This document shows positions 10,037 through 61,409 of a stretch of DNA of 64,000 bases, in pieces. The stretch's first letter is position 1, and the number at the start of each line of letters is the position of its first letter. The translations under genes were made by a program, and so were the position numbers. Below the pieces are notes generated by a model, which was not told where the DNA came from, made no database searches, and saw only the letters and a program-made list of their open reading frames with translations. This stretch comes from an uncultured Patescibacteria group bacterium (lineage in GTDB: Bacteria; Patescibacteriota; Minisyncoccia; Phycocordibacterales; UBA918): the NCBI GenBank assembly GCA_934699595.1, contig CAKUWT010000001.1, positions 289,033 to 353,032 of the forward strand, written 5' to 3'.

Positions 10037-10602
10037 ATGAAACGTAGATATTTTCTTACTGGTCTCGGCGCAATCGTCTGCCTGCCTGAGGTTGCTGCGG
10101 CGGGACGGTACGTCCTCAGCCGCGACCGGAGCGGAAACTGGCCACAGGGCGACAGGAAGACACACTTATCAGTGTCGACTTCAACACCGCCATGCTGACC
10201 ATCGTCCGCAACGGACAGCTCCTGCATAGCACCAGGGTAGTGCTACCTCACAGTGCGCAGGCCTATCGTTTGCCGGTGCATGGCGTGGTGCAACAAGCCA
10301 TCTGGAAACCATCTTGGACACCAACCGCTGCCACTCGAAAGGCCCAGCCGCGCCTGAAGGCATATTACCGTGGGGGCGAATCCGGGAACGCTATGGGTGA
10401 CATCAAGTTGGTCATCCAGTACGAAGCCGGGAGTAACATTCCCAGCACCGTACGGATTCATGGAGCGGCGGCAGAGGTCGATCTGGGGACCAGGAAATCG
10501 CGTGGCTGTATCCGAGTACAGAACTCGTTCGCTCCCACGCTGCTGCAAGCAGTCAACGAGGGCCAGCGGCTGGGGGTGGTGAGGACATATTTCTACAACT
10601 GA
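10037..10602 (+). pseudogene. L,D-transpeptidase (YkuD) gene with a Tat-type signal; an apparent frameshift separates the signal-peptide frame (10037-10198) from the catalytic-domain frame (open from about 10090, M at 10192, to 10602)
   Basis: Frame 1 gives MKRRYFLTGLGAIVCLPEVAAAG, a twin-arginine signal. Frame 2 gives ...LISVDFNTAMLTIVRNGQ...RIHGAAAEVDLGTRKSRGCIRVQNS, the LDT catalytic HG...SxGCIR motif. The two frames overlap at 10090-10198. The segment is GC-rich (about 60%). A strong SD (GAGGAGGAGGAAGAA) precedes the ATG at 10037. Confidence 0.5.
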
Positions 10603-10656
10603 GAGCGGCGGTTAGCCGCTCTCAAGAGGGCGAACGCTAATTCGCCCTCTTTTTAA
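10603..10656 (+). terminator. tandem stem-loops ending in a T-run, downstream of the LDT gene
   Basis: Two hairpins are visible: gagcggcggttagccgctc, then agagggcgaacgctaattcgccctct followed by ttttaa. Confidence 0.5.
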
Positions 10657-10725: not shown

Positions 10726-12210
10726 CTAATCAGCAAAAAAGCTCTTGGTGTCATCCTTGTAGACATCTGATTCTAATACTTCTCTATCGTCATTCTCTTT
10801 TCGAGACACCACAAAGATTCCTCCAATAACCAGTACCAGCAAGCCGCCAAGAGCCCAGTAACTCCAAGCAGTATCTCGCCTAGCAATCTCTTCTTCATCT
10901 CTCTCCAGGTCCTCTGCTTGCAGCCAAATCTCTTCTTGGCCAACTGTCTCTAATTTGACTGGTACCACCTCCTCATCACCGGCAAATGAGAATCTTTTGC
11001 CGTCTGCCATTGGTGACGCTGCCTGATTGCTAACACTGCCCACCGGCGCCTTGGCGACGCTCGCCACTAGTGCCGCTGGGTTGGTCTCTTTAGCGGTAGC
11101 AGTAATCTGCTTGCCAGTATTATCCCGCAACCAAATAGCATCGCGATTACTCAATCCCAAAATCACCGCCGGTAAAGTAATGGAACCATGCGCGGTCATG
11201 ATGGTGTCACGCGGAAAAGTAAAAACTTTCCGCGGGGTGACAATTTGGTAGTTACTAATATCGACCTCGTAGGCAGTATCATTAAAAATGGTCAGCCGAC
11301 CGTCGACCTGCAGTTGCCAAGAAAGTTTAACTGGCAATACTAGGATTTCATGACGCGCGGCCGCTTCGTAATCAGCATATTTAGCTCGCAGGGTAACAAT
11401 GTATTTACCGGGTTCGGTGAAAGTGTGAGTAACTTTTTCCAATCCGTCAAGAACAGCGAAGCCATCCCCAAAATTCCAGGTATAGCGCATCGATTGTAGG
11501 ATGGTATTTGGCATGCCGCCGATCTCTCGCCGCAGTGTAATCGTCTGTCCCACGTACGCCGCCTCACTGACAACAATTTCTAGACTAAGCTCGTTGGCGG
11601 GTAAGGTCACATTTGGGATAATCTTTTTTACCAGCTCAGCTGGCTTGATAGTCGTTGTTGTCTTAGAGCCAGAGTTGCCGCCAGCACCACTTTCTTTTGG
11701 CACACACTGCGACGGTGGTCCTAAGTCTGGATTAATATTGGCTTGTCCCGGAGTGGCGACCGCAGTCATCCAGCTGGTACTGGTACGCTGAGCGGTAGTT
11801 TTAGCCTTGTTGTCGCCACCAATCAAACACCAATCTTTACCGCCCACCACCCTATCCACCTCATTATCTTCCGCATCAAACATGACAACGGTGGCACCAG
11901 TATCCACCATAGCACCGGTGTAATCATCAGTCCTTTTTAAGACCAAATATTGACCACCTGAGATCTCTCCCTTCAAGGACTTAGCGCCAACTGAAATAGT
12001 TTCGTCATCCTGCCCTGTTTTTATAAAGCCAATTTTCCAACCTTCCAGACTAACAGTTTGATCCCCGTCATTATAAAGCTCCAACCACTCCTTAGTGCTA
12101 GCACCCTCCTCACCCATCCATGCTACTTCAGTAATAGTCACCGCCGCCTGGCCAAACTGAGGACAGAGAAAACTAAATAAAATCACGTTTCCTACTACCC
12201 ACCGTTGCAT
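10726..12210 (-). CDS. lamin-tail-domain (LTD) surface protein with a signal peptide, a beta-rich middle region and a C-terminal TM anchor
   Basis: The motif ITEVAWMG...KEWLELYN is the LTD signature. An N-terminal signal peptide and a C-terminal TM segment (WALGGLLVLVIGGIFVV) are present. The gap from the upstream ATPase gene is 6 bp. Confidence 0.55.
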   Translation of the reverse strand: MQRWVVGNVILFSFLCPQFGQAAVTITEVAWMGEEGASTKEWLELYNDGDQTVSLEGWKIGFIKTGQDDETISVGAKSLKGEISGGQYLVLKRTDDYTGAMVDTGATVVMFDAEDNEVDRVVGGKDWCLIGGDNKAKTTAQRTSTSWMTAVATPGQANINPDLGPPSQCVPKESGAGGNSGSKTTTTIKPAELVKKIIPNVTLPANELSLEIVVSEAAYVGQTITLRREIGGMPNTILQSMRYTWNFGDGFAVLDGLEKVTHTFTEPGKYIVTLRAKYADYEAAARHEILVLPVKLSWQLQVDGRLTIFNDTAYEVDISNYQIVTPRKVFTFPRDTIMTAHGSITLPAVILGLSNRDAIWLRDNTGKQITATAKETNPAALVASVAKAPVGSVSNQAASPMADGKRFSFAGDEEVVPVKLETVGQEEIWLQAEDLERDEEEIARRDTAWSYWALGGLLVLVIGGIFVVSRKENDDREVLESDVYKDDTKSFFAD

Positions 12211-12216
12211 AGTACT

Positions 12217-14283
12217 TTAGATAGTCTCAGGATTTTGTCCACTAAGGATTTTCCGTACTGCCTGTTGAGACGGTGCCTTCGACTGTCTGGCTTCGCTATT
12301 ACGCTTCGCTACTTCGAGAGCCTCGAGAGCCTTTTCTGCTTCCTCCAGTAAAACCTCTAGCTTGGCCATACTGGCATGGTCAGTCATGGCTAAGTTGGTT
12401 GCTAAGCTAGCACCAGCGTCACGAGAGCCAGTTTTAGATCTGTTCTTTTCAACTTTCGTAACTCTCTCTGATTGTTTAGAGTTCTGAGCCTCACTATCAT
12501 CCCCAACCTCATTCTTGGTCTCATTACTTTTTTCGGTGGCCTGAAGCACAGCCAGCGCAGCCTGTAATGATTTGCTCTCAGCCGCTTTTTTAGTAGGTGC
12601 ACCAGGATTGCTTTTGCGCTGCTCGTCGGCAGTGAGCTGTCGCAAGATATTTTTTAAATCATCCGATTCGCGAGGCGACTCTGGTCGCTTTGTCTCCGAA
12701 CGAGAATTGTCTCGCTTAGCAGAATTACGCCACTCCGCTGATGGTTTTTTTGAATCCATGCCACTATCTTCACGAGCGGTGCGATTATTTTGCGGAGTCG
12801 TCGCTCTCTCATCACGAGCCGCACTACTTCGCTCATTTTTTTGTGGCCGCTCATTTCGTTGACTTAAACGTGTGTCTTTGTCTTGCGAATTCCCTGCTCG
12901 TGACGACTCCTCACGAGCTCCACTTTCTCGTGGACGATTATCCGGACGTCTCTTCTCGTCTGGTCGTTTATTATTACTCTTCTCTGGACGTTCTGGATTA
13001 TGCAGCAAATTTACCAATTCTTCCACGTACGCTCGTGGTCGGGTGTAATTTTTCCGACTTGCCAAAATCGCCATCTGCTTATAAGAAATGCTCGGTGGCG
13101 ACAGTGGCGGCAAAGTAGTGGCAGAAAATGGCGCTGAACCAATCCCGTCAATCATTAACGACAAATAAATCTGCGCAAAGCCGAGGTTGATTAAATCGGC
13201 CGCCAGGAAAGTGGGAGTAAAAACTGTCTCCAGCACTTCCGCATCAAAAGGACCAACCCTAAAAGCAATGGTGGTACCAACGTTACCAAACACCGCATCC
13301 CGTACCTCCTCTTCCATCTGCTCAATGTACTGGTGAGCGATGATGAGATTCAGGTGATACTTCCGTGCCTCAGACAAAATGTCGGCAAAAGTAGCGTTAG
13401 CAAACGACTGAAACTCATCCACGTAAAAATAGAAGTTGGGCATCTTCCGCATCTGTTCGACAGACAAATCAGCCCGACTCATAGCGGCTAGATAAATACG
13501 AGTGGTGAGCATCGAGCCCAGTAAGTTAGCGTTAGTTTCCCCGATCAAACCTTTGGACAGATTCATAATGAGAATCTTTTTATTATCCATGATGTCACGA
13601 ATATCGAAGCTTGATTTCGGCTGTCCGATAATGTTGCGGATCAAGGGGTTGCCAGTAAACTGACCAATCTTGTTTTGGATAGCAGGCAGCGCTTCAGCAG
13701 CAAAGCGATCAGTGTAGTTAGCAAACTCATCCACCCAAAAAGATTTTACTGCGGGATCGGTAATGTAATCCACTACTTCCTGTCGATATTTTTTATCAGT
13801 AAAGAGTCGATTGACAGAAAGCAGAGTAGTATCGGGATACTCAATCAATGCCAACAGCGCATTGGTAAGAATGTACTCCATTCGCGCACTCCAAGCATCG
13901 ACCCAAATCTTTTTGAAGGTAGACATAAGTCCTGAGACCACCAGATGGCGCTTGTCTGGACCAACGTCTTCCATAACGTTAAAAGAAATCGGATTGTTTA
14001 AATCAAAAGGCGCAAAGTAAATCACATCATTCACTCGCTCTTCCGGAATATACTCCAGCAAAGTCTCAGCGGCACTACCGTGCGGATCAATAAAAGCCAT
14101 CCCTTCGCCATTTTGAATATCCTGTGCCGCCATGTTTTCTAACAAGGTCGACTTACCCATACCCGTCTTGCCGATGACATACATGTGTCGCTGACGATCC
14201 TTAGCCTTAATTCCAAATGAGACGGGTTGTCCGCGGGCGTCGGTCTTCGCAAAATAAGTGATTTTTTCTGGATCAAAGGCCAT
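12217..14283 (-). CDS. TraD/TraG/VirD4-like (AAA_10 / TraG-D_C type) P-loop ATPase with a roughly 260-aa low-complexity, highly charged C-terminal tail
   Basis: A Walker A motif (YVIGKTGMGKST) is present. The motif FYVDEFQSFANATFADILSEARKYHLNLIIAHQ resembles the TraD/TraG C-terminal region. There are no N-terminal TM helices. The last roughly 260 residues are R/E/K/S/N/D-rich. Confidence 0.5.
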   Translation of the reverse strand: MAFDPEKITYFAKTDARGQPVSFGIKAKDRQRHMYVIGKTGMGKSTLLENMAAQDIQNGEGMAFIDPHGSAAETLLEYIPEERVNDVIYFAPFDLNNPISFNVMEDVGPDKRHLVVSGLMSTFKKIWVDAWSARMEYILTNALLALIEYPDTTLLSVNRLFTDKKYRQEVVDYITDPAVKSFWVDEFANYTDRFAAEALPAIQNKIGQFTGNPLIRNIIGQPKSSFDIRDIMDNKKILIMNLSKGLIGETNANLLGSMLTTRIYLAAMSRADLSVEQMRKMPNFYFYVDEFQSFANATFADILSEARKYHLNLIIAHQYIEQMEEEVRDAVFGNVGTTIAFRVGPFDAEVLETVFTPTFLAADLINLGFAQIYLSLMIDGIGSAPFSATTLPPLSPPSISYKQMAILASRKNYTRPRAYVEELVNLLHNPERPEKSNNKRPDEKRRPDNRPRESGAREESSRAGNSQDKDTRLSQRNERPQKNERSSAARDERATTPQNNRTAREDSGMDSKKPSAEWRNSAKRDNSRSETKRPESPRESDDLKNILRQLTADEQRKSNPGAPTKKAAESKSLQAALAVLQATEKSNETKNEVGDDSEAQNSKQSERVTKVEKNRSKTGSRDAGASLATNLAMTDHASMAKLEVLLEEAEKALEALEVAKRNSEARQSKAPSQQAVRKILSGQNPETI

Positions 14284-14353
14284 AACTTAGAATCTATTAT
14301 AGCAAACACTTTATCTTTATACGGGAGAGGTGGCGGGAAAGATACCAATATTT

Positions 14354-15244
14354 TTACTGATTTAGGATATCCTGTTCAGACTTCTTTTTAGAAAAATAAA
14401 TCAGAAGAAAAGCAAAATAATAAATTAACACTACCGCCATTAGATACCAGTACTGATAATCAGAATCATAGTAATTACGATCACTCCTACTGAAAACCTT
14501 AAACACAAAGCTGCCATAAAGCATTATCAGCGGTGAAGAATAGACGGTAAATTTATAAAGATACAAATAAATTACGTCTCCTAAGCGAAAAGACAATAGG
14601 AGCGGGATTAGCAAAATCAGTAATAGTAAAGCTACCTCTGACAGCCCTATAATAAAATAGTCACAATTATAGCCCGACGGGTCAATTATTGGACATAAAC
14701 CTGTCACAGATATCACCACACTGGGCACCTGCAGAAATATAGCAACTAAAAACCAAATAAATGCCTTTCTCTTTAACCTTTTAACTAACAGAGGTTTCTC
14801 AATAGGCCCGTCTTCTACTTTTATTTTACCGCGCTTAATCCCGTAAGCAGTATAAATGATAACTCCTAATGAAATAAGTATATATGCCAAGCAAGCAAAC
14901 AGGGCAAAAATCATTTTGTAATTTATTCCCAACCAATCAGTCTCCACTACCGTAATTGCATAATAGATATAAATTAATAGCAGCGGTATAGCCACTGAAG
15001 CAAATTTAAACCATCTGAGAAAAACTAACTTATCAAATGGTAAAGTTAATAAGAGTGGCAGACTTAATAGGGTAAAGCTTAGTATGAGAGTGTAAGCATT
15101 CTCAAATGTTACGTAACACCGAAAACTATAAGTGTTGTTTGTTGAGCACAGATTACCCACTTCATAAAAGTACATAAAAATAACTACGGGCACGCAAGTA
15201 AGAAAAATCATCAAAAATGTCCACTTGCTAAATAACTTACTCAT
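14354..15244 (-). CDS. polytopic membrane protein (about 8 TM), hypothetical
   Basis: The hydropathy pattern is strongly hydrophobic. The gene shares a 5' leader motif with the next gene upstream. Confidence 0.45.
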   Translation of the reverse strand: MSKLFSKWTFLMIFLTCVPVVIFMYFYEVGNLCSTNNTYSFRCYVTFENAYTLILSFTLLSLPLLLTLPFDKLVFLRWFKFASVAIPLLLIYIYYAITVVETDWLGINYKMIFALFACLAYILISLGVIIYTAYGIKRGKIKVEDGPIEKPLLVKRLKRKAFIWFLVAIFLQVPSVVISVTGLCPIIDPSGYNCDYFIIGLSEVALLLLILLIPLLLSFRLGDVIYLYLYKFTVYSSPLIMLYGSFVFKVFSRSDRNYYDSDYQYWYLMAVVLIYYFAFLLIYFSKKKSEQDILNQ

Positions 15245-15325: not shown

Positions 15326-15724
15326 TTATTTAGTCTTATTTTTCCTAGAATTATAAGCTGTGTGCACAGCTACCGCCAAAAAAGCTATAAAGTATGCCAG
15401 ATAAATAAAAGGCAGGAAGGCACTTAAAATATTATATCCTGAAAAATAACCTCCACCAATACTCAAAGCGACGGTTGTATAAGTAAAAATAATGGGAACA
15501 GTCACTAGTGTGAAAAAAGAGCAATTATCAAAAAATTTCCTACTAGAAAAAATAGACATGACACTAAGCGGTAAAACCAAGAAAAAACTCCCCAACAATG
15601 ACCAGGCTATGCTGTTGAGAAATTTATAATTATAGACTTCTCCCAAATAACCAAACCCAATGAAACAGACCAAAAATGTAAAGTTTATTAAAAATACATT
15701 TTTTCTATTTAAAAAATTATTCAT
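15326..15724 (-). CDS. small 4-TM membrane protein immediately downstream of the secreted lipase (candidate immunity/partner protein)
   Basis: Four hydrophobic helices in 132 aa. The gap from the lipase stop codon is 6 bp. Confidence 0.5.
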   Translation of the reverse strand: MNNFLNRKNVFLINFTFLVCFIGFGYLGEVYNYKFLNSIAWSLLGSFFLVLPLSVMSIFSSRKFFDNCSFFTLVTVPIIFTYTTVALSIGGGYFSGYNILSAFLPFIYLAYFIAFLAVAVHTAYNSRKNKTK

Positions 15725-15730
15725 ACCAAA

Positions 15731-18160
15731 TTAATTACCTATTAATAACCTCAATTTCAATTCCAATAGTTGAACAATCAGTTTTAATAGTTCGAGGTAT
15801 TGGGAGTTTGCTTCTATTTCCATTTTACGATCCTCAAAGTGGGTGATATATCCAACAGCTGAGGACCCGGAACTTACTGCCGGCCCCTTACCACCTTCCT
15901 CAAACAACGGTAGAGAAACTGGTCCAAGAAGTGATAGAGCGAGTTCTAGATCAGTAGCACCGTCACCATCATAATCAATAATTAAATCACCAGCTGCGGT
16001 AAGGCTACCATCGGGAAAATCCATACGAGCAAGTGTATCAGGATTGCTAGGAATACCCGAGAAAACACTGTAGTTAATTTGCGTATCCGCTTCGTATTCT
16101 TCTATTTCTAAGGTAAAAGAACCCTCATCGTAACCCGTTAAATAAATTGTGGGATTTGCCTCTTTTGGTAAAGACAGCATCTGCACCTCACCGAAGCGCT
16201 CATACCAGGCTCCAGGAATTTGAGAAACGTTTTGACCTATCTCATTACCACTCTCATCCACAGCTGAGAGATGTAGGGGCGAATGCAATATAAACTGTAG
16301 GCGGTTATCTTTATCGATTACTGGTTGAGCGCCATAGATATACTGAGGTAACGGTGAATTATATTCAAAGATAATATTTTTAAAGATAAAATCATTTAAC
16401 TGTCTTAGGTCAAGAAGATTATGATGACCTTTCCTCAACAAGTCAGGGAGTTCAATTCCAAGAAATCTATTGTAACTATCCAAATCCACCCACCACCTAC
16501 TCACACCTTCACCGTCACCAATAGCCAAAGCGCTCGGCGCCACCACTGTTCCATCACCGTCGTAGACAATTCTTGGTTTGTACGACAGGACTTCTGAGGA
16601 ACAAATTTTAGTAAAGAAATTAACAACTTTTGTAACAAGTTCCCTACAGTCTTCAATGCCCTTATAATCAATACCCGCCAAAGTAGCTTCGCCCACGCCA
16701 GCAATTTGATGTATCTCTATTTCTGGAGGTGGCTCCCAGGCACCTATTTTATTTTGGGCAACTTGAGCGGCCTTAATCAATACTGAATTACCAACTACTG
16801 GTAATTTTAAGTTCGAGCTAGGGGGCTGAGTGCGTCCCTCTGTACCCACCAAAAAATCATGCAGCTCATTAGGAGTAATCGCATAGCCAAATTTATCAAT
16901 AAAAGCTTGAGTAGCGAGACGATCATCAAAAGTTACATAGGGAGTGTAAATACTACTGCCAACACTACCGTAATAATTAGCGAACGGTAATAACTGATAC
17001 ATCCCTGGCATATTGCGAGCAATGTCTCTCGCCCTCTCATCTTTTAATGTGCCTAAAATACCGACCTCATACCCATGCAATAAAGCACCAATAGTTTTAG
17101 GTGTCCCCAGCTGTGGTGTCCCTACCATTACTAATTTATCTACCAAATCTGCCGCCTCACTACCAAGCTCACTCAATAAATACTTGGCTAATAATCCCCC
17201 TTTAGAGTGAGCCACTATTGAAACCTTCCCCGTTGGTGATGAAGCCGCTAAATCACGTAAATTATTTTCAATACTGCCGTCACTTAAAATATCTGAAAAG
17301 GAAAGCCGCCAATCGTAAGGCATCGCCAGATAATCAGTAATCTTACTATTGTTTTTATAATTTTCTAAATCTGCCAAAAAAGATTTGTAAATGTCCACAT
17401 TAAGCAACCCGTGAAAAGTATCAACAACCTCCTTGGCAGTAATACTATTTAGACTTTGTCCTACTTCGTTCAGGTATAGTCTTTGGACATGAGAATCCCC
17501 ACCCTCCCAACGCTGAATTTCTCCTTCAAATAAACGGCTGCCCATAAACCCCGGCAAGAAAAGTACATTTGATACTAAGTCTGAGTTCTCAGTTACAGTA
17601 AATGTAATGGACCGAGTATGAATTGGTTCAGCCTCGTCTGCATAAGCTATAGGGAATAACTGGGTAAAAAGATTAAGGAAACGATTAGATTTATTGAGAG
17701 TTAGGTAACCCTCATAAGAAACTAGAGTATAAGTACCTGTAATAAACTCAGGTAGAGGCTCACCCTCCACTAATACATTTTGGTAGCTACCTCCTTCATG
17801 TCTAAATACCTCTATGTCTAGGTAATTGTAATCAAAATCAGGCGCTATTTTGTAATTGACATACTCACTTAGCCCACCAACAGGAACTTGGATAATAGCC
17901 CCCTGAGTAACTGTTTGTCCATTCAAAGTAATCTGGTGTGGGTAATGTGCATCATTAACTACCTCGACATTAAATGGATTGTTACAATCGAATACCGGAG
18001 TTGTGACTGGCCCCTGCACATAGGAACCGCCATGAACCCAGCTCCAAAAATCTGAACTAATGTTTCCACAGCCGGACTGAGCTCCTGCTAACTGCACCGA
18101 CAGTAGAAGAACTACTAGCAGAGAGCTTGTTAGCTTAATGAGACTTAAAATTCTATTCAT
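15731..18160 (-). CDS. secreted LCAT-like / PGAP1-like alpha/beta-hydrolase (phospholipase/acyltransferase family), about 809 aa
   Basis: A signal peptide (MNRILSLIKLTSSLLVVLLLSVQLAGAQS) is present. The motifs LFLPGFMGSRL and YLAMPYDWRLS (YDWR) and the nucleophile elbow VSIVAHSKGG (GHSxG-type) are present. DGDGTVVAPS is a candidate catalytic Asp. A paralog lies at 61410-63785. Confidence 0.65.
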   Translation of the reverse strand: MNRILSLIKLTSSLLVVLLLSVQLAGAQSGCGNISSDFWSWVHGGSYVQGPVTTPVFDCNNPFNVEVVNDAHYPHQITLNGQTVTQGAIIQVPVGGLSEYVNYKIAPDFDYNYLDIEVFRHEGGSYQNVLVEGEPLPEFITGTYTLVSYEGYLTLNKSNRFLNLFTQLFPIAYADEAEPIHTRSITFTVTENSDLVSNVLFLPGFMGSRLFEGEIQRWEGGDSHVQRLYLNEVGQSLNSITAKEVVDTFHGLLNVDIYKSFLADLENYKNNSKITDYLAMPYDWRLSFSDILSDGSIENNLRDLAASSPTGKVSIVAHSKGGLLAKYLLSELGSEAADLVDKLVMVGTPQLGTPKTIGALLHGYEVGILGTLKDERARDIARNMPGMYQLLPFANYYGSVGSSIYTPYVTFDDRLATQAFIDKFGYAITPNELHDFLVGTEGRTQPPSSNLKLPVVGNSVLIKAAQVAQNKIGAWEPPPEIEIHQIAGVGEATLAGIDYKGIEDCRELVTKVVNFFTKICSSEVLSYKPRIVYDGDGTVVAPSALAIGDGEGVSRWWVDLDSYNRFLGIELPDLLRKGHHNLLDLRQLNDFIFKNIIFEYNSPLPQYIYGAQPVIDKDNRLQFILHSPLHLSAVDESGNEIGQNVSQIPGAWYERFGEVQMLSLPKEANPTIYLTGYDEGSFTLEIEEYEADTQINYSVFSGIPSNPDTLARMDFPDGSLTAAGDLIIDYDGDGATDLELALSLLGPVSLPLFEEGGKGPAVSSGSSAVGYITHFEDRKMEIEANSQYLELLKLIVQLLELKLRLLIGN

Positions 18161-29619: not shown

Positions 29620-31098
<1,479 letters not shown>

Positions 31099-31612: not shown

Positions 31613-32019
31613 CCATCAAAAAACCCGCTCTGACAAATCAGGCGGGTGGATTAATTAGGCGGAGCTAAAGTACAGACAACTGATCGCTGAGGAATACCAT
31701 CATGGATACCCTCCCGCCAGTAGTCGTCAATAACTCTCCTAAGAAACCTTCTTCAAGGGTGACCCAGTCACTCACTAACGGTCAAGCCGCAGTGGTGCGA
31801 GTCCTCCAGGAAGTTAACCCGGCAAAGATCAGAACTGAGCGCTAGCACGAAGCTAGGCTCGCTCGATCAAGTCGGGACTAGGTCGAAGACTGACAGTGTC
31901 AGCCCCCACCCTTAGTAAGGTCGACTAGATTTAATCGAACTGACAAAGGGTGGATGAACAAAGTAGAAAGGAAATGGTTTGGAGTGGGCAACCAGAATCA
32001 ATGGTTGCCCACTCCTTCC

Positions 32020-33390
32020 TTACGCCGCCGCAGAAGTCGGCCTGGCCGGAGCCATAACCCCAGTCAGGCGACCATCGCTCCAGGCACGGGCAATCACCCT
32101 GTTCAAACTCATCGCTTTGATGGCTTGGGTCTGATCAAGGATACCAACCAGTTTCAACTGGCCAGCTTCCGTGGCCGTGGCCTTGAGCCAGAACTCCTCT
32201 CCAGCCACCGTAAAGTGGAGGAAGGATTCCTTGCCAGGCTCTTGGAGCATCGCCTCGACCACTTCAGGATTCAAGTAGGTGATATTCACCCGCTCTTCCT
32301 GTGTGGCCGCATTAAGTTCTTCGCGGATTCCTCGCGCGTAGCGGCGAGTTGTCCGCGAATAAGCCTTGGCTGTGTCGGCTGCTTCCATTGCCTGTCCAGC
32401 TTTATCATCAGCTGTGTCGGCAGTGGTCTTCGCCGTCATTGCCGCCGCTTGCGCGCTGGCAACTAGGTCGCTCATCCTTGTGAACGCTTCGGTCTGGTCG
32501 CCGATTTTCTTCTGGAGATCTTTTTGTGTGAGGAAGACGATAATCGTCCCCACCAAGGCCAGCAGAGCCAGAATCGCAGCTCCTAATGCCCACCAGAGAG
32601 ACTTGCCAGCAGTGGTCGCAGCGTCAGTCGCTTTGGCGTCAGCCACCGCCACGTCGGTCTTCAGCTGACCGACATCGGCCTCAACAGCATCAAGCCGAAG
32701 CTCAATGCCCGCCAAGTGCGCAGCGATATCAGCCATGGTCGCCCGATTCTCGCGAATCTGCTCCACGACCTCCGCAGTCGGCACGCCGAGGTTTTCCAAC
32801 CCCGCCGTCACCAACCTCTCCACCTCACCGCGAGTCATGGACTCGGTCGGTGCGACGGTGATCTTGGGGAAGGTCTCCTTCACCAGAGCAATCACTTGCT
32901 CTGGTGTGAGCATGGTCGACTCGACCTTGCTCGCCCAGTCCTCGAACGCGGCTTGAAGCTCGGAAGCTTCCGTAGCCGCGATCGCCGGCTCAGGGGTTCC
33001 TGCCTTCGCTGGCAGAACCATTCCTTCTGTCGTCGGGAAAAAGTAACTTTTCCCCTTCATCAGATAGTAATGGCTCTCCTGCGAGGGCTGCTTCGGAAAC
33101 AATTCCCTGTTCCCGAAAAAGACTGCTTTCATGCAGTCAACAGTGACTGCTTTCGCCAGACCGGCTGGCCTGACAAAGTCAAGGTAGCAGCCATTCCAGA
33201 GCGAGTCGCGCCCCGTCATGGCTGTCCGACTTTCCCACACCTTCACCATTGGCAAGTAGGGCGAGGTAACCTCGATTTTCTTGCCAGTGGAAGTGAAGGT
33301 AGTTTGGTACGCCCAGGTGGGTGCACCAAATCCTATCCCTAGGATGAAGACGGTCACCAAGGTGGCCGCCCGCTTCAGAATATGTCGCAT
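32020..33390 (-). CDS. secreted hypothetical protein with an Ala-rich coiled region and a central TM segment (GC-rich island)
   Basis: A signal peptide (MRHILKRAATLVTVFILGIGFGAPTWA) is present. A strong SD (AAAGGGAGG) lies 7 nt upstream. A terminator hairpin (ggagtgggcaacc...ggttgcccactcc) follows the stop. Confidence 0.45.
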   Translation of the reverse strand: MRHILKRAATLVTVFILGIGFGAPTWAYQTTFTSTGKKIEVTSPYLPMVKVWESRTAMTGRDSLWNGCYLDFVRPAGLAKAVTVDCMKAVFFGNRELFPKQPSQESHYYLMKGKSYFFPTTEGMVLPAKAGTPEPAIAATEASELQAAFEDWASKVESTMLTPEQVIALVKETFPKITVAPTESMTRGEVERLVTAGLENLGVPTAEVVEQIRENRATMADIAAHLAGIELRLDAVEADVGQLKTDVAVADAKATDAATTAGKSLWWALGAAILALLALVGTIIVFLTQKDLQKKIGDQTEAFTRMSDLVASAQAAAMTAKTTADTADDKAGQAMEAADTAKAYSRTTRRYARGIREELNAATQEERVNITYLNPEVVEAMLQEPGKESFLHFTVAGEEFWLKATATEAGQLKLVGILDQTQAIKAMSLNRVIARAWSDGRLTGVMAPARPTSAAA

Positions 33391-33447
33391 AGCGACCTCC
33401 CTTTTTTCAGGTTATTTTTATCAGGCGGTCTGGCGACCGCCTGATAA

Positions 33448-34023
33448 TCACTGCATCAGCACGCATGTCGGACAACCACTCAAAGTCGAATTGACCTGGG
33501 TGGCATTGCTCGAACTTGAGCCGGCAGCGGCGTTGGAGTTACCTCCTTGTCCACCCTGGCCACCTTGTCCGCCTTGACCACCAGACGCTTTGACTGTTGT
33601 CTCGGAGCTGTTCTGGTTGGCGTTTTCGTTGGACGCCCCCGCGACAGCGGTGGCGCCCTCAATCGCGATCTGCGTACCACAATTACCTTTGCACCGTCCG
33701 GCCAATGCGCCAGCGGTTTGGATAGCCGCAGCACCCATGCCGCTCGTCATTCCGACGACGACTTGACCAGCCACCGTCGGTCCGATTTGGACTTCGCCAG
33801 CGGTCTGCACCACCCGGCCGTCAGCCGTGCGGGCGTACATGCCTGCCACCGTTGCCTGTCCGTTGATGCTGTTTGAGCCACTGGCGACAGCCAGGTATTG
33901 GCCGTCCGGCATCAACGTGATGTCTGGGGCCTTCGGTTTTTCCATCGTCCCCTGCGGTCCACAGGCGGCGAGAAACAAAGTTGCCACCAAGGACAACCTT
34001 ACCAGAACTTTCTGTTTCATTTT
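33448..34023 (-). CDS. lipoprotein with a GGQ repeat and a C-terminal CPTC motif (GC-rich island)
   Basis: The start MKQKVLVRLSLVATLFLAACG carries a lipobox (LAAC). The repeat GGQGGQGGQGGQGG is present. The protein ends SGCPTCVLMQ. Confidence 0.45.
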   Translation of the reverse strand, partial: KMKQKVLVRLSLVATLFLAACGPQGTMEKPKAPDITLMPDGQYLAVASGSNSINGQATVAGMYARTADGRVVQTAGEVQIGPTVAGQVVVGMTSGMGAAAIQTAGALAGRCKGNCGTQIAIEGATAVAGASNENANQNSSETTVKASGGQGGQGGQGGQGGNSNAAAGSSSSNATQVNSTLSGCPTCVLMQ

Positions 34024-34048
34024 TTGTTCCTTTCTGGATGAGCTGGTT

Positions 34049-34714
34049 TCAGCGGATACCGAAGCCCTGGCCCGAGGTGCCAAAGCCGCTTTGGTGTCTT
34101 GTGGAGTACGTCTGCCCGAGGACAGTCACCCCCGGAATATACACGCCGCATAGGTAGAGACCATTCGTCACTACCGATGGCGTGCTGTGATACTCAGTCC
34201 AGCTCCGCGACGCCGGTTTCATCGGCGGCGGTGCTGGAGTGATCACTTTCCAGACCAAGTTCAAACAACCAAGCGACACGGCGGTCACCCAGCTACCGTC
34301 CGGTCTTTCGACCTGGATCAGCTGCTCTTTGTTGTAACACCTCCGAGAGAACCAGCTGATCGTGCCATCCGCACGAAGACCGCTGGTCTCGATAGTGTCG
34401 CCATTGCAAGCAACGGTGCGCAGCTTTCCCTGCTGGGAAAGCTGCTGAAAAACAGCCTCCGTATTCGGAATGCCAGCAGCCATCGCCAACTGCTTCCGCA
34501 CGGCCGCATAGGCAGCATTGGAAGCAAAGTAGTGGCGAGGATTGGCCACTAATTCGTTAAGAGTCGGCGGTGTTCCGCCTTTACCCAGATAGTATTCCGT
34601 TTTTGCAAACGGAGCCAGAGTGGCAGCGCTGGCAAAAGTTGCCAGCGTCAAAGTCATCGCCGCGACCAACGCGGTGATGATTGCTCCCGCGCGGGCGCGC
34701 GACGAAGTCAACAT
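34049..34714 (-). CDS. secreted hypothetical protein (GC-rich island)
   Basis: The start MLTSSRARAGAIITALVAAMTLTLATFASA is signal-like. An SD (AAAGGAAA) lies upstream. The gap to the next gene is 25 bp. Confidence 0.4.
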   Translation of the reverse strand: MLTSSRARAGAIITALVAAMTLTLATFASAATLAPFAKTEYYLGKGGTPPTLNELVANPRHYFASNAAYAAVRKQLAMAAGIPNTEAVFQQLSQQGKLRTVACNGDTIETSGLRADGTISWFSRRCYNKEQLIQVERPDGSWVTAVSLGCLNLVWKVITPAPPPMKPASRSWTEYHSTPSVVTNGLYLCGVYIPGVTVLGQTYSTRHQSGFGTSGQGFGIR

Positions 34715-35103
34715 TTTTATTTCCTTTCTTGTCAAGGAACAGTCGGAACTGTCCTCTTGGTTAAACCTCAGCCGTTTCCTAGTTTGCACCACAGAGACGG
34801 CTGGGGTAGTTCCCTTTTCCTAGCGAGAACCGTAGCATACTTTAAAGAAAAAATCAAGTCTGGAGACACCATTCTGGTAATTAAAAAAGCTCACCGAAAA
34901 ATAAAACTGGCGAGCAACAAAAAACCCCGCCGAAGTGAAAAGTCACATTCATACGGGGTTATCTTTTTCTCTCGACCAGCGAGAGGAATTCTTGGGGAGT
35001 AACTATCTACCTTAGACAGCCGCTCGGGTGATGGATGTGGCTCGTGGACACACTCATCGTGGATAGGTGTGGGAAGGCGACAAGTCGCCCTCCCACCAAA
35101 AGC

Positions 35104-35544
35104 TCATTTGGTCGAAAAATCGAGCTTGGAACCGAAGGTGAACTCGCCCATGGCGGCCGAGCCCGACTGTGCAGTCACACCACCCGTGCCGACGCTCTTC
35201 GCGTAGGTATTGCCCTTCGCCAACTGGTTGGCGTCAAAGCCGGAGAAGAGCACCTGGTCGCCACACCCGGCGCCGCAGTTCGGGTCGACCTTGATCGACC
35301 CGCCGCCCCAGGCGTTGTAGGAATCCACGGTGGAGGATTCCACCACTCCTTCCTTGTCGCCGAAAGCAAAGCCTTGGCCTTGGACCTGTCCGGTCCAATT
35401 CATCTTGAGGTCCATCTGCAGCACCGGCTGTTGCGGGGTCTGCTGCTGCCCACCACTGCAGCCCCAGCAGCCCGCGGCCGCAAAGCCGGCAGTGCCGAGA
35501 GTCAGGGCGGCGGTCGCGATCGCGATCTTAAAGAACTTGTTCAT
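35104..35544 (-). CDS. small secreted Gly/Cys-rich protein (GC-rich island)
   Basis: The start MNKFFKIAIATAALTLGTAGFAAAGCWGCSGG is signal-like. An SD (AAGGAAAA) lies upstream. Confidence 0.4.
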   Translation of the reverse strand: MNKFFKIAIATAALTLGTAGFAAAGCWGCSGGQQQTPQQPVLQMDLKMNWTGQVQGQGFAFGDKEGVVESSTVDSYNAWGGGSIKVDPNCGAGCGDQVLFSGFDANQLAKGNTYAKSVGTGGVTAQSGSAAMGEFTFGSKLDFSTK

Positions 35545-35786
35545 GGCGGTTTTCCTTTTCAAAACCGGTTGAGATTTTGGAGCCGAAGCTCCAGTGAACG
35601 CTCTGCCAAAAACGGCAGACGTCCGAGGAAAGGGGTGACCACTCGCAAAAATGATCCGCACGCCTTATCCGTTCTCAACAGAACTGCCCACGAGTATACA
35701 GACATCCACAAGTTTGTCAAGAGCTCCCGTCTGTATTACCAAGCAAACCTTCAAAAAGAAACCTCGGCCTCATCATGAGGGCTAGT

Positions 35787-35839
35787 ATCAACAAAAAAGC
35801 TGGACGTTGCTTGGTTCTTTAAACCAAGCAACGTCCAGC
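35787..35839 (-). terminator. strong rho-independent terminator (19-bp perfect stem) after the 35852-36193 gene
   Basis: The hairpin agctggacgttgcttggtt-cttta-aaccaagcaacgtccagct is followed on the minus strand by TTTTTTGTTG. Confidence 0.6.
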
Positions 35840-35851
35840 TAGTAAACTCCC

Positions 35852-36193
35852 TCATATCTCAGCATCCGGTCGAGTTTTTTTAGATATTGGTGGGGCCGGA
35901 TACTTTTCAAAAGAACAAGAAAAACTCCCAGTGATTATTTCTTCCTTGGTACAGGTAATCATGTAATCCTTCTGTCCCACCACAATATCATAGTGAGCAT
36001 TGGGATAAATATCACCATAGAGAATCACCCTTGATGAGCTCTGAAGTTCAAACAACAATTCTTGAATGGATAACTGAACACGGAGGTTAAAGTTCTCTTT
36101 AGCCAACTTATCAGTGAAGCTGTTCAAAAAACGAACTTCCTCACTGCGGGCTCGGTAACTATTTTCTATTGAGATTAAGCTCGTCGTAACCAC
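35852..36193 (-). CDS. hypothetical protein (AT-rich gene inside the GC-rich island); the start is uncertain (GTG, or a frameshifted upstream ATG)
   Basis: An ORF of about 113 codons with a strong downstream terminator. An SD-preceded ATG at 36236 is in another frame. Confidence 0.35.
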   Translation of the reverse strand: MVTTSLISIENSYRARSEEVRFLNSFTDKLAKENFNLRVQLSIQELLFELQSSSRVILYGDIYPNAHYDIVVGQKDYMITCTKEEIITGSFSCSFEKYPAPPISKKTRPDAEI

Positions 36194-36352
36194 GGCGGCA
36201 CTGACACCAGTGCACGACCAGTCTGAGAATTTTTCCAGTCTTACGCATCGTCGCTTCCCTCCTCACCTTACTCAGATTACTAGAAGTCTTCTATGTAAAA
36301 ACCCGGGCAAGAATCCTTGCCCGGGTTGGTGATTCGCGAAGCGAATCCTGTC

Positions 36353-36847
36353 TTACTTGCTGATGACACCAGCGCCGGCCTGAGCGCCCGCGATCGCGGT
36401 CGTATCCTGAACGGCAATGGCGACCGCGCCGCCGCTGTCGCCGGCACCATAGACCTTGGTGACCCCGAACTGGGCCATAGGCTCGGTGTGCCCGGCATAC
36501 ACGATCTGCGAAGTCCCGCAGGCCTTGATCAACCCTTGGTTGGCCAGGGAAAGATCGCGGTTGTCGCCGGTCGGCGACGTCGCCGGATTCTCCGACACCA
36601 GGATATAGCCAGGGGCGAACAGTCCGCCGCCGCGCGCGACTTTCGTCGCTCCGCAGCGGAACTCCGTGTCCTCGGCGACCACCTTGCCGCCGGCCAGCCT
36701 GGTGCCGGCCGGCAGCGGGATCACCTTCTCGAAGGTGTCCACCCCAGTCACAATACCGGGTGCCGTCGTCGGCACAGTGCCACAGGCGCCGAGGCCCATG
36801 ATCGTGGCGGCGGTGATGATCAAACCAAATTTGCCGTGTACCTTCAT
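36353..36847 (-). CDS. lipoprotein, hypothetical (GC-rich island)
   Basis: The start MKVHGKFGLIITAATIMGLGACG carries a lipobox. An SD (GGGAGAAG) lies upstream. Confidence 0.4.
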   Translation of the reverse strand: MKVHGKFGLIITAATIMGLGACGTVPTTAPGIVTGVDTFEKVIPLPAGTRLAGGKVVAEDTEFRCGATKVARGGGLFAPGYILVSENPATSPTGDNRDLSLANQGLIKACGTSQIVYAGHTEPMAQFGVTKVYGAGDSGGAVAIAVQDTTAIAGAQAGAGVISK

Positions 36848-37013
36848 CTTCACTTCTCCCGTTTCAAAGAAGATTGACAACTTCCCGCAGACACACCATT
36901 GTCTCTGCCAGTTTGTCAATTCTGCGCCTGAGGTTAGCAAACAATTATTGTTTTGTCAAGAGGAGCATAGAAGCGAGTGGCTGGGACTTTACCTTAACTG
37001 CTACTCACCGTTA

Positions 37014-37098
37014 AAAATAACCGCCGCCGACAAAGTCGGTGGCGGTTATTTTCACTAACTCAAATATAAAAATAGCCCCCGCATTTGCATGCGAGGGC
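37014..37098 (-). terminator. two tandem stem-loop terminators downstream of the 37144-37587 gene
   Basis: The hairpins are aaaataaccgccgccgac-aaag-tcggtggcggttatttt and gcccccgcat-ttgc-atgcgagggc. Each is followed by a T-run on the minus strand. Confidence 0.5.
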
Positions 37099-37143
37099 TG
37101 AGGGTCACTGACAGTTTTTGCCAACAACCGATGCTTGAGCCCG

Positions 37144-37587
37144 TTACCGGGGGGGGCCGTAGCCGCCGGTGGACGGCTCGATGATGCCGCCGGCGTTGAC
37201 ATAGCCGGAGTTCGTCCCATTTTCCTGGGTCATGACACGGGCCGGGGCCCTGATGCCGAAACTCGCGGCCGCCGCCTTGCCACGGGTGCCGCTGGCAGCA
37301 TCCGAGAAGGAAACGACTTGGCCCTGGCTGGCGCCGTTCGGCCCCGTGATCAGGATGTCGGCGGATGCGTTGCCCTCGAGCTGTTTGTAGCTTTCGCTCT
37401 CGGCCTTGGTGAGGTCACCCTTGGCCAGCCCGACGTTGTTGGTGTTCGTGAACCCGTCGTACCAGCCGGAGGCCTGCAGCGAGGTCACGTTCAGCCGGGG
37501 ATGCTTGATCCCGCCAGCAAAGACGGGGGCAGCGACGAGAGACATGATCGCAGTGGTGATGGCAATCGTTTTGGCTTTGTTGAACAT
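37144..37587 (-). CDS. secreted hypothetical protein (GC-rich island)
   Basis: The start MFNKAKTIAITTAIMSLVAAPVFAGG is signal-like. An SD (AAGGAG) lies 6 nt upstream. Confidence 0.4.
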   Translation of the reverse strand: MFNKAKTIAITTAIMSLVAAPVFAGGIKHPRLNVTSLQASGWYDGFTNTNNVGLAKGDLTKAESESYKQLEGNASADILITGPNGASQGQVVSFSDAASGTRGKAAAASFGIRAPARVMTQENGTNSGYVNAGGIIEPSTGGYGPPR

Positions 37588-37690
37588 CGTCAACTCCTTG
37601 TAAAAAGATCTCCCTAACACCCCCTTGGTGCTGGGGCGTTCCTCTGTGGAACAGCAGACGTAAGTTAACACAAGTAGAAAAAAATACAAT

Positions 37691-37718
37691 ATTGACAATA
37701 TGCCAAAAATATATACTA
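37691..37718 (+). promoter_or_regulatory. candidate sigma70-like promoter for the 37824 gene
   Basis: A TTGACA is followed 14-16 nt later by TATACT / TACTAA. The spacing is suboptimal. Confidence 0.25.
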
Positions 37719-37823
37719 ATTTAAGAGCCCCATCCCCTTCTTTAGCCGGGACCTTTTGATCCTTCTGATCCTCTTCCCCAGCGACCACCCGAGACCAACA
37801 AAATCTGTTACAATGGTAGCCGT

Positions 37824-49716: not shown

Positions 49717-49736
49717 GTCTATCTTCAAAACTTTAA

Positions 49737-51296: not shown

Positions 51297-51323
51297 ACGG
51301 TCTAAACCCAGCTCGCGTGACTT

Positions 51324-51356
<33 letters not shown>

Positions 51357-51910: not shown

Positions 51911-51950
<40 letters not shown>

Positions 51951-53888: not shown

Positions 53889-53933
<45 letters not shown>

Positions 53934-61389: not shown

Positions 61390-61409
61390 AAAATTTATTT
61401 ATTGCACGA

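Follow-up and report, generated by a model that had tools for sequence, protein, structure and literature searches.

What does a coupling-protein-like ATPase do on the chromosome of an uncultured Patescibacteria group bacterium, where its gene stands directly before that of a lamin-tail-domain (LTD) surface protein? We addressed this question for one such locus within a stretch of 64,000 nucleotides (contig CAKUWT010000001.1 of assembly GCA_934699595.1), hereafter the window. The ATPase and its parts are encoded as follows.

12217-14283, minus strand: gene for a soluble VirD4/TrwB-type (coupling-protein-like) ATPase of 688 amino acids (ORF, Pfam and NCBIfam, homologs, fold).
12994-14283, minus strand: motor domain, amino acids 1-430 (AlphaFold2 model, Foldseek, identity to relatives).
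14146-14172, minus strand: Walker A motif GKTGMGKST, amino acids 38-46 (invariant residues, alignment to the TrwB P-loop).
13585-13950, minus strand: all-α domain, amino acids 112-233 (secondary structure of the model, coverage by Pfam TrwB_AAD_bind).
13414-13434, minus strand: Walker B motif FYFYVDE, amino acids 284-290 (invariant residues, position in the model).
12220-12993, minus strand: low-complexity C-terminal tail, amino acids 431-688 (composition, charge, disorder, motif conservation).

Among FtsK-HerA ATPases, this soluble protein falls in the VirD4/TrwB (type IV coupling protein) branch. It has intact Walker motifs and belongs to a very large family in Patescibacteria (more than 8000 homologs). 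Pfam matches it to TrwB_AAD_bind (E 1.6e-10, amino acids 26-343) and TraG-D_C (24.7 bits, cutoff 22). The match to the HerA-type family DUF87 (24.3 bits) covers amino acids 18-74 only, a weak NCBIfam match to CedD lies in the P-loop region, and Pfam FtsK_SpoIIIE gave no match at E ≤ 0.01. In the AlphaFold2 model of the ATPase monomer (motor domain pLDDT 89.6, pTM 0.88), the motor domain consists of an N-terminal β-hairpin and a RecA-like nucleotide-binding domain, into which the all-α domain is inserted, with confidence, between strands 87-90 and 237-241. Residues G38, G41, G43, and K44 of Walker A are invariant in both subfamilies, as are V288, D289, and E290 of Walker B (hhhhDE type), which comes after strand 284-288 in the model. 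The top 32 Foldseek matches to the motor model are all TrwB chains (E 4e-14, TM 0.59-0.65, ~425 columns). HerA, Cag-β, and DotL come next, HerA structures matching more poorly than TrwB (E 6e-12, TM ~0.5). No NurA or effector gene adjoins that of the ATPase.

The ATPase thus shares with TrwB, VirD4, TraD, and TraG (R388 TrwB, PDB 1e9s/1gki) the RecA-like domain, the inserted all-α domain, Walker A and B, the two Pfam families, and a C-terminal extension that may recruit partners. It matches TrwB structurally over its full length (TM ~0.6), with sequence similarity to solved coupling proteins confined to the Walker regions. Unlike coupling proteins, it has a β-hairpin in the model where these have a transmembrane domain, and no transmembrane-like segment was found in it (highest 19-residue Kyte-Doolittle mean, 1.56). 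The Pfam matches and this hydrophobicity maximum bear out the original prediction of a TraD/TraG-like ATPase without N-terminal membrane helices. It differs further from coupling proteins in being a chromosomal core gene without a linked type IV secretion system (T4SS), relaxase, or oriT, and in having a long disordered tail and a coupled secreted LTD/HhH protein.

The tail, first described as about 260 residues of low complexity, comprises 258 by composition (S 12%, E 11.6%, A 11.6%, R 11.2%, K 9.7%, N 7.4%) and has a net charge of +9. Disorder prediction had been proposed as a check, and AlphaFold gives the tail as disordered apart from four short helices. Alignment of 60 homologs revealed four or five short conserved motifs within it, among them SDDLKNILRQL (~540-550), LQAALAVL (~573-580), an amphipathic helix (641-660), and AVRKIL at the C-terminus; L543 is invariant, and L547, L573, and L577 are nearly so.

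TraD and DotL recruit adaptors through C-terminal tails with short binding motifs. The fold, the Pfam family, and the conserved tail motifs would all suit a true coupling protein of a chromosomal Patescibacterial T4SS, encoded away from virB4, in which the tail motifs recruit protein or DNA substrates for delivery to a VirB4/VirB6 channel and the LTD protein is a host-contact adhesin. T4SSs are indeed widespread in Patescibacteria, and t4cp genes often lie far from virB4 (PMC12102498). However, the ATPase has no transmembrane domain, and the homolog, although near-ubiquitous (2,918 of 3,035 genomes), lies near virB4 in only 148 of 5,713 cases (PMC12102498). In Southlakia the t4cp homolog is dispensable, as are the com genes, whereas the T4SS is essential (PMC12102498, PMC10633639), and this T4SS has been described without a recognizable coupling protein (PMC10633639). 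We therefore consider a T4SS coupling protein an unlikely, though still serious, explanation.

The partner surface protein is encoded directly downstream.

10726-12210, minus strand: partner surface protein gene, 494 amino acids (ORF, Pfam LTD and PKD, hydrophobicity, orthologs).
11845-12150, minus strand: N-terminal lamin-tail "head", amino acids 21-122 (Pfam LTD).
11347-11499, minus strand: PKD domain, amino acids 238-288 (Pfam PKD and PKD_4).
11086-11334, minus strand: third β-rich domain, ~amino acids 293-375, LTD-like by homology, with inferred boundaries.
10807-10872, minus strand: C-terminal membrane anchor, about amino acids 447-468 (hydrophobicity, motif alignment).

The partner is laid out as a signal peptide (a hydrophobic N-terminus ending GQA/A), the LTD head, a linker, the PKD domain, the LTD-like third domain, an acidic linker, the C-terminal transmembrane segment, and a 26-amino acid cytoplasmic tail. 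The head matches the Pfam LTD β-sandwich with an E of 5.4e-18 (65.8 bits, cutoff 34.3), which places the partner among lamin-tail-domain proteins, and NCBIfam gives a weak match to the ExeM LTD region. At a looser Pfam threshold a second LTD stretch appears in the third domain, a region that aligns with weak LTD matches in orthologs (e.g., amino acids 218-296 at locus L084, E 5e-7). The PKD domain is found in 64 of 66 partner orthologs, and the anchor starts with a juxtamembrane motif that reads WSYWAL in the window and WPYLGL or SPWxLGLLG in orthologs. Sequence, Pfam, and hydrophobicity together agree with the LTD protein originally predicted 6 bp downstream of the ATPase, with signal peptide and C-terminal anchor.

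The head of the partner is exchangeable. Pfam found no HhH domain in the window's partner, which has LTD and PKD instead, but in 10 of the 66 orthologs a ComEA-type HHH_3 domain (up to 77 bits) takes the place of the LTD head. This domain matches B. subtilis ComEA (8dss, 8dfk; E 1e-11) and the Thermus ComEA-related protein, and one further ortholog has a generic Ig-like head. The swap occurs between orthologs with 50-65% identity across the remaining 270 amino acids, and LTD, ComEA-type HhH, or other Ig-like heads are found among orthologs whose ATPases share 90-93% identity. Like ComEA (B. subtilis 8dss/8dfk, Thermus 2duy), the partner is membrane anchored and extracytoplasmic, and some orthologs have the HHH_3 domain in common with it at their outer end. 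Unlike ComEA, the window protein has an acidic LTD instead of HhH, a C-terminal anchor after a cleavable signal peptide, and extra PKD and LTD-like domains, and it is encoded with the ATPase rather than with comEC.

LTDs have been reported in extracellular DNA-processing proteins such as Shewanella ExeM (PMC6085458), in Haloferax Hvo_1477 and haloarchaeal ComA (PMC5118699), and in Izemoplasma DNA-degradation loci (PMC8289736). In ExeM, Hvo_1477, and ComA the LTD is N-terminal and the protein is secreted, envelope tethered, and linked to extracellular DNA; the partner differs from these in having no nuclease or metallo-β-lactamase domain. Two observations count against DNA capture by the head: the LTD heads are strongly acidic (median net charge −11, n=55; −11 in the window as well), and the HhH heads are also slightly so (−2 to −6). 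Given these acidic heads and the one generic Ig-like head, the head could serve as a variable module for adhesion. A protein of PKD, LTD, and Ig modules whose head can be exchanged would likewise suit the host-contact adhesin of a T4SS, on which a ComEA-type head would be unexpected. HhH-type partners stop at the membrane helix, and with so little of the partner, if any, reaching into the cytoplasm, no physical link to the ATPase is evident.

Three further elements bear on how the pair is expressed.

14296-14304, minus strand: extended −10 element TGCTATAAT, read from the sequence, ending 12 nt ahead of the ATPase ATG.
12211-12216, minus strand: 6-nt spacer AGTACT between the ATPase stop codon TAA and the partner ATG.
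10600-10651, no strand assigned: two adjacent GC-rich hairpins between the partner gene and a convergent plus-strand gene.

Of 83 related loci, 82 have a −10-like hexamer 6-14 nt ahead of the ATPase start codon, TG-extended in 62 cases; each neighboring gene family has only 1-2 TG-extended elements, and coding controls have 3 of 83. Its position directly before the ATPase in nearly all loci implies that the pair has its own promoter and that a near-leaderless transcript starts the two-gene unit there. The generic promoter scan did not list TGCTATAAT because it has no −35 match. The spacer AGTACT is the proposed site of translational coupling, and the tight coupling anticipated from these 6 nt recurs in relatives, in which the gap is 12 bp or less in 47 of 53 loci and some gene pairs overlap. 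At the other end, the terminator scan returned an 11-pair hairpin at 10624-10651, followed by a T-run on the plus strand, and a second hairpin is read on the minus strand at 10622-10600. No T-run follows the hairpins on the minus strand; they probably mark the end of the unit, where minus-strand transcription would terminate.

Upstream of the ATPase, a lipase gene and two multi-TM genes run in the same direction. The co-directional string is real, with gaps (6, 81, 70, and 6 bp) within the 81 bp first given, but it is not 8.5 kb long: lipase through LTD gene measure 7.4 kb, and the penicillin-binding protein (PBP) gene brings this to 9.1 kb. In 84 related loci the lipase and multi-TM genes turned up just twice, in the window and at L002; judged by this distribution, they are an unrelated insertion outside the two-gene unit. 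Together with the ATPase's own promoter, this distribution removes the basis for a single 8.5-kb apparatus that includes the lipase and membrane proteins. It also bears on the proposal that, within that apparatus, the ATPase powers the export of the LCAT-like lipase or its display on the surface. Co-directional genes and short gaps in the window would fit such a role, but 82 of the 84 loci lack the lipase and multi-TM genes, the lipase has its own signal-like N-terminus, a second lipase paralog, followed by a small multi-TM ORF, is present at 60439-63785 without any ATPase, and the promoter element of the ATPase is separate and conserved. Lipase export thus conflicts with the comparative data and is very improbable.

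The ATPase and its partner, on the other hand, are a conserved chromosomal two-gene unit of Patescibacteria within the window's clade. Gene order in relatives had been set beforehand as a refutation test, and the pair passes it: the partner adjoins the ATPase in 55 of 79 evaluable loci of this clade. A partner ortholog occupies the +1 position in 61 loci. The order RsmI, DUF4015, PBP, ATPase, partner, epimerase is kept across relatives in Kaiser-, Nomura-, Wolfe-, and Adlerbacteria and other Paceibacteria. Chance juxtaposition of the two genes was considered and rejected, as the pair recurs in dozens of independent genomes. The partner is missing from the other 24 of the 79 loci and from 38 of 39 more distant ones, and the core function of the ATPase therefore cannot depend on it.

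The motor domain is 73-91% identical to its relatives, as compared with ~60% for flanking housekeeping genes. Median identities at the same 50 loci are 79% for the motor, 62.6% for RsmI, 58.8% for DUF4015, and 33.5% for the partner. Conservation this strong is unusual for a dispensable competence factor, a point against a role in DNA uptake. The window contains rRNA, Sec, and Mur genes, with cell-wall and division genes around the ATPase (MurC, MurD, FtsW, PBP), and in distant relatives the ATPase adjoins pgk, trmD, efp, and SecDF.

This setting, the extreme conservation of the motor, the near-universality of the family in the phylum (PMC12102498), the long, basic, disordered tail, and the dispensability of the partner in many lineages are what a housekeeping cytoplasmic DNA motor would lead one to expect. 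Such a motor might, as an FtsK analog, act in chromosome segregation or resolution at division, the partner being merely a co-transcribed envelope protein. FtsK/SpoIIIE belong to the same ATPase superfamily and also combine a motor with a long low-complexity linker. However, the window ATPase has the motor first and the linker and tail last, unlike FtsK, and has neither transmembrane helices nor a γ domain, nor the Pfam FtsK_SpoIIIE match. Southlakia can do without the homolog (PMC12102498), an ftsK is annotated besides in at least one Saccharibacterium (PMC10768705), and tight coupling to a secreted protein of DNA-binding type would be left unexplained. We regard a housekeeping motor as improbable.

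The same context bears on whether the ATPase belongs to a decaying conjugative or integrative element, or is a phage terminase or a defense ATPase (HerA/MADS type). The match to a conjugative coupling-protein family and the weaker matches to PADLOC mad8 (6e-15) and PHROG phrog_5156 (2.9e-54, function not annotated) would be compatible with such an origin. Against this stand the stable chromosomal synteny among housekeeping genes and strong purifying selection. The ORFs scanned in the 64-kb window included no relaxase, integrase, or VirB4, and the recurrent neighbors in 160 loci no VirB4/T4SS gene or relaxase. Neither flanking attachment sites nor patchy strain-level presence and absence were seen, and only 12 relatives occur among 2.9 million viral contigs. 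A terminase match, which had been named as grounds for refutation, extends no further than the P-loop (phrog_2666, E 9.5e-6, amino acids 24-72). We judge all of these origins very improbable. The original suggestion of a conjugation or DNA-uptake remnant fails as to "remnant", since conservation in the neighborhood is highest in the motor domain; uptake itself gains support, because orthologous partners carry ComEA-type HhH instead of LTD.

Elsewhere in Patescibacteria a DUF8128 membrane protein comes before the ATPase or is fused to it, behind a Sigma70_r4/HARE-HTH gene. DUF8128 is present in 30 more distant loci and in fused proteins, and a search of the 64-kb window and of loci L001-L084 gave no homolog. 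These DUF8128-T4CP proteins (fused, e.g., P0194, or split), which NCBI names [quoted passage not shown], have the same ATPase module (47-64% identity) with a disordered C-terminal tail, and both they and the window ATPase are chromosomal and phylum specific. They differ in the membrane-anchored DUF8128 (PF26449, ~380 amino acids), fused or directly upstream, and in having no LTD partner, whereas the window type has a surface partner and no DUF8128. We counted this pairing or fusion against uptake.

On balance, we infer that the pair is a chromosomal module for DNA translocation, unlinked to any T4SS and most likely serving uptake, and assign this reading a probability of roughly 40%. The conserved pair, with ComEA-type heads in close relatives, hints at an undescribed DNA-handling device. 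The ATPase would form a hexameric ring, as TrwB does, and, on the cytoplasmic side of the membrane, would spend ATP on moving a nucleic-acid substrate; its tail motifs would bring it to the membrane or to partners. On the cell surface the partner would capture the substrate, DNA in the case of HhH variants, and together the two would help transfer DNA across the envelope, most likely inward. In such uptake the partner would take the role of ComEA, and the ATPase would pull from the cytoplasm, in concert with ComEC or some other channel. Uptake is at odds with the export direction of known coupling proteins, and no competence genes were found within ~8 kb of the ATPase in any locus. There is precedent for FtsK/HerA/VirB4-class ATPases in DNA import in Helicobacter ComB and crenarchaeal Ced (CedB ATPase); these differ in having VirB4-like ATPases with dedicated membrane channels alongside, and no channel gene is linked to the window ATPase. 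Only 31% of CPR genomes have an annotated ComEA, and an alternative DNA-binding mechanism has been proposed (PMC6744442). We counted this in favor of the DNA reading, together with the LTDs of extracellular DNA-processing proteins, the Southlakia findings, and the small number of homologs near virB4.

New here are the size and conservation of the family, the scope of the pair, the status of the lipase and multi-TM genes as an insertion, the pair's own promoter, the head swap, and the tail motifs. A bolder and more doubtful proposal is that Paceibacteria possess a T4SS-independent DNA-import (or export) device composed of a soluble VirD4-like hexameric motor and a C-terminally anchored surface receptor. 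The motor would be tethered via the short motifs of its long disordered tail, and the outer domain of the receptor would be exchangeable among LTD, ComEA-HhH, and Ig-like forms. If true, this device would replace the functions of ComEA and ComFA, which are sparsely annotated in the Candidate Phyla Radiation.

The ATPase region is encoded entirely on the minus strand in the ORF calls and comprises the following features:

12217..14283, minus strand: ATPase gene, ORF of 688 amino acids
10726..12210, minus strand: partner gene, ORF of 494 amino acids, its ATG following the ATPase TAA and six bases (AGTACT)
10807-10872, minus strand: partner anchor (hydrophobic segment, juxtamembrane motif)
14304-14296, minus strand: extended -10 element TGCTATAAT, from sequence reading
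14354-15244 and 15326-15724: two multi-TM proteins beside the first lipase, without Pfam match
15731-18160, minus strand: upstream lipase, LCAT family (Pfam)

A YkuD/Peptidase_S11 protein is also encoded upstream of the ATPase (Pfam). Since the window contains rRNA genes, SecDF, FtsW, and Mur ligases, the ATPase region is part of the core chromosome. ORF calls, Pfam, and hydrophobicity agree with the original prediction in its description of the ATPase, the tail, the 6-bp gap, and an LTD partner with a signal-like N-terminus and a C-terminal anchor.

Several other features of the window were observed. The rRNA genes are unlinked (29638-31097, 49736-49845, and 51240-54518, all minus strand), with ~20 kb separating the 16S gene from the genes for 23S and 5S. 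For the 23S, the match covers 3279 nt as compared to the 2925-nt model, and the gene therefore probably contains a ~350-nt insertion. The G+C content rises to 0.53–0.58 at ~32000–38000, versus ~0.45 elsewhere, in a patch of overlapping ORFs on both strands that lack Pfam matches (e.g., 32020-33390, 33448-34083, 34049-34792, and 35035-35778). A convergent ORF of 136 amino acids (10192-10602, plus strand) encodes only the catalytic domain of a YkuD L,D-transpeptidase (profile positions 14–142), has no evident signal sequence, and is kept in the related locus L002; it may have a mis-set start codon or be a truncated gene.

The ATPase matches the Pfam families TrwB_AAD_bind (E 1.6e-10, amino acids 26–343), TraG-D_C (24.7 bits, cutoff 22), and DUF87, and matches the NCBIfam TraD/VirD4 models below threshold. 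A first full-length AlphaFold model was poor due to a shallow alignment (pLDDT 57.6, residues 310–390 mis-modelled), and was replaced by a model of amino acids 1–440 from a more diverse alignment, which was confident (pLDDT 89.6, pTM 0.88). This model has a RecA-like core with an all-α insertion (helices 112–233), and its best structural match is TrwB (E 4e-14, TM 0.59–0.65, ~425 columns), followed by HerA, Cag-β, DotL, DndH-C, and VirB4. No variation occurs at the Walker A and Walker B residues in alignments of the family. In a PDB sequence search with the family profile, likeness to TrwB and other solved coupling proteins was confined to the Walker regions. The TraD/TraG-like assignment made originally is thus upheld by the TrwB_AAD_bind and TraG-D_C matches and the TrwB-like model. 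The terminase match that had been named as contrary to it was not obtained beyond the P-loop, and a terminase or defence ATPase was rejected, as these gave P-loop or remote matches only. In fold and motifs the protein is thus far a coupling protein, minus two defining features: unlike coupling proteins, it lacks a transmembrane domain (no membrane-helix-like segment was found by hydrophobicity in the 688 amino acids), and no T4SS or relaxase was found linked to it among the scanned ORFs of the window or the recurrent neighbours in 160 loci. A 400-kb metagenomic scaffold encodes an identical protein. Of the more than 8000 relatives scored, every named one belongs to Patescibacteria; they carry the NCBI name 'type IV secretion system DNA-binding domain-containing protein'. 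When 50%-identity representatives were searched exhaustively, 5,848 clusters were obtained at E < 1e-30.

The last 258 residues of the ATPase are rich in S, E, A, R, K, and N and have a net charge of +9; in 78 relatives, the median tail is 214 amino acids long and the median net charge is likewise +9. Short conserved motifs sit inside variable low-complexity spacers of the tail:

DLHTP
S..DLR.VLA.I
L..ALA
EL.RL.AE.EAAF.AL, an amphipathic helix
DPL.PK.I.K.L, near the C-terminus

Short helices are predicted at four conserved tail motifs in the full-length AlphaFold model. By analogy with the tails of TraD and DotL, the motifs are probably partner-binding or membrane-targeting elements.

The partner gene lies directly downstream of the ATPase gene in 55 of 79 evaluable loci (those with a motor at least 70% identical to that of the window), so that the unconserved gene order named as contrary to the original hypothesis was not observed, and 47 of the 53 partners at +1 are separated from the ATPase by 12 bp or less. 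An extended -10 element (TGnTATAAT or TATACT) is found 6–14 nt before the ATPase start in 82/83 loci. It is TG-extended in 62 of the 82, with 1–2 TG-extended cases per neighbouring gene family. This recurrence at the start codon indicates a putative dedicated promoter and an mRNA that would be leaderless or nearly so. The element is rare before the partner gene, a scarcity that would fit translational coupling. Two hairpins occur 3' of the partner gene. A generic promoter/terminator scan found no more than expected from shuffled sequence and did not pick up the extended -10 element.

The motor domain is 73–88% identical to that of the window across 80 genomes (GTDB species representatives). 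In the 50 loci sharing all compared genes, the motor has a median identity of 79%, RsmI 62.6%, DUF4015 58.8%, and the partner 33.5%, a comparison that holds within the locus only, as loci were picked by ATPase similarity. The recurring order is RsmI, DUF4015, (YkuD/S11 PBP), ATPase, partner, and epimerase. This stable synteny and strong conservation contradict the earlier suggestion of a conjugation remnant, and a mobile-element remnant was rejected on these grounds, with 12 relatives in viral contigs. These 12 (L168–L179) are the only ones among 2.9 million IMG/VR contigs, and may therefore derive from cellular fragments that were binned wrongly or from rare acquisition by phages. In the function-unknown PHROG phrog_5156, which has 824 profile positions, it is the C-terminal half that matches the ATPase (E 2.9e-54), and this family so appears to have a fused DUF8128-type architecture. 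Two short contigs, from a Gammaproteobacteria MAG (L009, CAYPRR010000148.1, 2.4 kb) and a Vibrio MAG (L042, NZ_JBNKVP010000177.1, 1.7 kb), carry a Patescibacteria-type ATPase with 78–86% identity, probably through binning contamination.

Among the related loci compared for synteny, the lipase and multi-TM genes are present only in the window and L002, and the ATPase has its own promoter element, showing that the lipase is excluded from the ATPase–partner unit. The idea of a lipase-linked apparatus, or of lipase export driven by the ATPase, was rejected due to this synteny, the internal promoter element, and a second lipase copy elsewhere. This LCAT-family paralogue (61410-63785, minus strand) is 30% identical over ~726 amino acids to the lipase at 15731-18160, and here too a small multi-TM ORF comes next (60439-60918, minus strand; module 60439-63785), which suggests that 'lipase + small membrane protein' is a repeated module. 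The multi-TM proteins at 14354-15244 and 15326-15724 show weak relatedness between themselves.

The partner protein has a hydrophobic N-terminus ending in GQA/A, an LTD (E 5e-18), a PKD domain, and, at its C-terminus, a hydrophobic segment with a 26-residue acidic tail. In 66 orthologues, PKD was found in 64, LTD in 63, and HHH_3 in 10, the last with the layout HHH_3, PKD, weak LTD, and anchor. The HhH domain matches B. subtilis ComEA (E 1e-11). Within a clade whose ATPases are 90–93% identical, partners are 50–65% identical over the C-terminal 270 residues and differ in their heads, which are LTD in loci L072 and L076, HhH in L084, and Ig-like in L078. L080 and L082 also have HhH heads, on more weakly related partners (30–37%). 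Several proteins acting on extracellular DNA carry LTDs (PMC6085458, PMC5118699, PMC8289736). Basic charge as a sign of DNA binding was not found in the LTD heads, which are strongly acidic (median net charge -11 in 55 heads; -11 in the window), and this counts against a simple DNA-binding role. Across the partner C-termini of L003–L084, a juxtamembrane motif recurs at the start of the anchor: most loci have WPYLGL, and one clade has F(R/K)SPWxLGLLG, with the protein stopping exactly at the helix. This layout resembles a sorting signal but may just as well be an interfacial aromatic belt of the ordinary kind.

More distant relatives (< ~62% identity) remain soluble and are usually tailed. Just 1 of 39 such loci has the partner; the ATPase is instead preceded by a gene for a ~400-amino acid TM-anchored protein. 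Its homologue in fused relatives is their N-terminal region, which is Pfam DUF8128 (PF26449). A Sigma70_r4/HARE-HTH gene and SecDF are almost always upstream of DUF8128-ATPase. Neither DUF8128 nor the Sigma70_r4/HARE-HTH gene was found in the window. L105 has both partners, with DUF8128 upstream and the LTD protein downstream. L166 and L167 have tandem fused DUF8128-ATPase paralogues. DUF8128 is fused to or precedes the ATPase in L104, L110–L138, and L165–L167 (e.g., L165:5758-9826; L166:2636-10423). A nearly tail-less subgroup (8–20-amino acid tail, ~50–56% identity; L146, L148, L150, L152–L154, L156, and L160) has other neighbouring genes, among them a small HTH-like ORF (L154), and may represent mobile-element coupling proteins. 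A second, shorter coupling-type ATPase paralogue occurs directly downstream of the first in L123 (3865-5382) and L161 (5069-6592), with the N-terminus '...KYAPPP.ELP...GRTNY...FGIKR.DR.RH.YIVG'.

The locus thus encodes a coupling-protein-family ATPase in a chromosomal, non-T4SS setting with a previously undescribed surface partner; our literature search found no paper on the ATPase-LTD/HhH pair or DUF8128, and nothing usable on FtsK in Parcubacteria. VirD4-like homologues number 5,713 in 2,918 of 3,035 Patescibacteria genomes, with 148 near virB4; they are unlinked to a secretion system in ~96% of genomes and may be exapted (PMC12102498). In Southlakia, the VirD4-like homologue is non-essential, whereas the T4SS is essential (PMC12102498); com genes are non-essential, although transformation needs them (PMC10633639). 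Only 31% of CPR genomes have an annotated ComEA (PMC6744442). The analysis shows what the two proteins are, that they are coupled and conserved, and that the lipase is excluded, whereas their function is inferred. The genetic data parallel those for com genes and not the T4SS, and the surface protein paired with the coupling-type motor has, in sister lineages, a ComEA domain as its head. For these reasons we tentatively favour, at a probability of about 40%, the pair being a DNA-translocation module, most likely for uptake. Of the main rivals, a distant coupling protein for a Patescibacterial T4SS, to which the TrwB-like fold would point, is less likely on the same genetic data, and a housekeeping DNA motor, for all the conservation of this chromosomal locus, is less likely still. 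Confidence in DNA translocation is limited because the LTD is acidic, the partner is often lost and has little or no cytoplasmic part, and pairing with DUF8128 is an alternative.

Patescibacteria account for much of bacterial diversity, are unable to synthesise nucleotides, and probably depend on DNA from hosts or the environment. The locus provides the orphan VirD4-like family with a concrete, testable context, consisting of its own conserved promoter element, a putatively translationally coupled surface protein, and a tail with defined short motifs. If the DNA-transport reading is true, missing parts of the Patescibacterial DNA-uptake route would be identified, and a coupling protein would be seen to operate without a T4SS; if it is wrong, the motor is still among the phylum's most conserved uncharacterised proteins.
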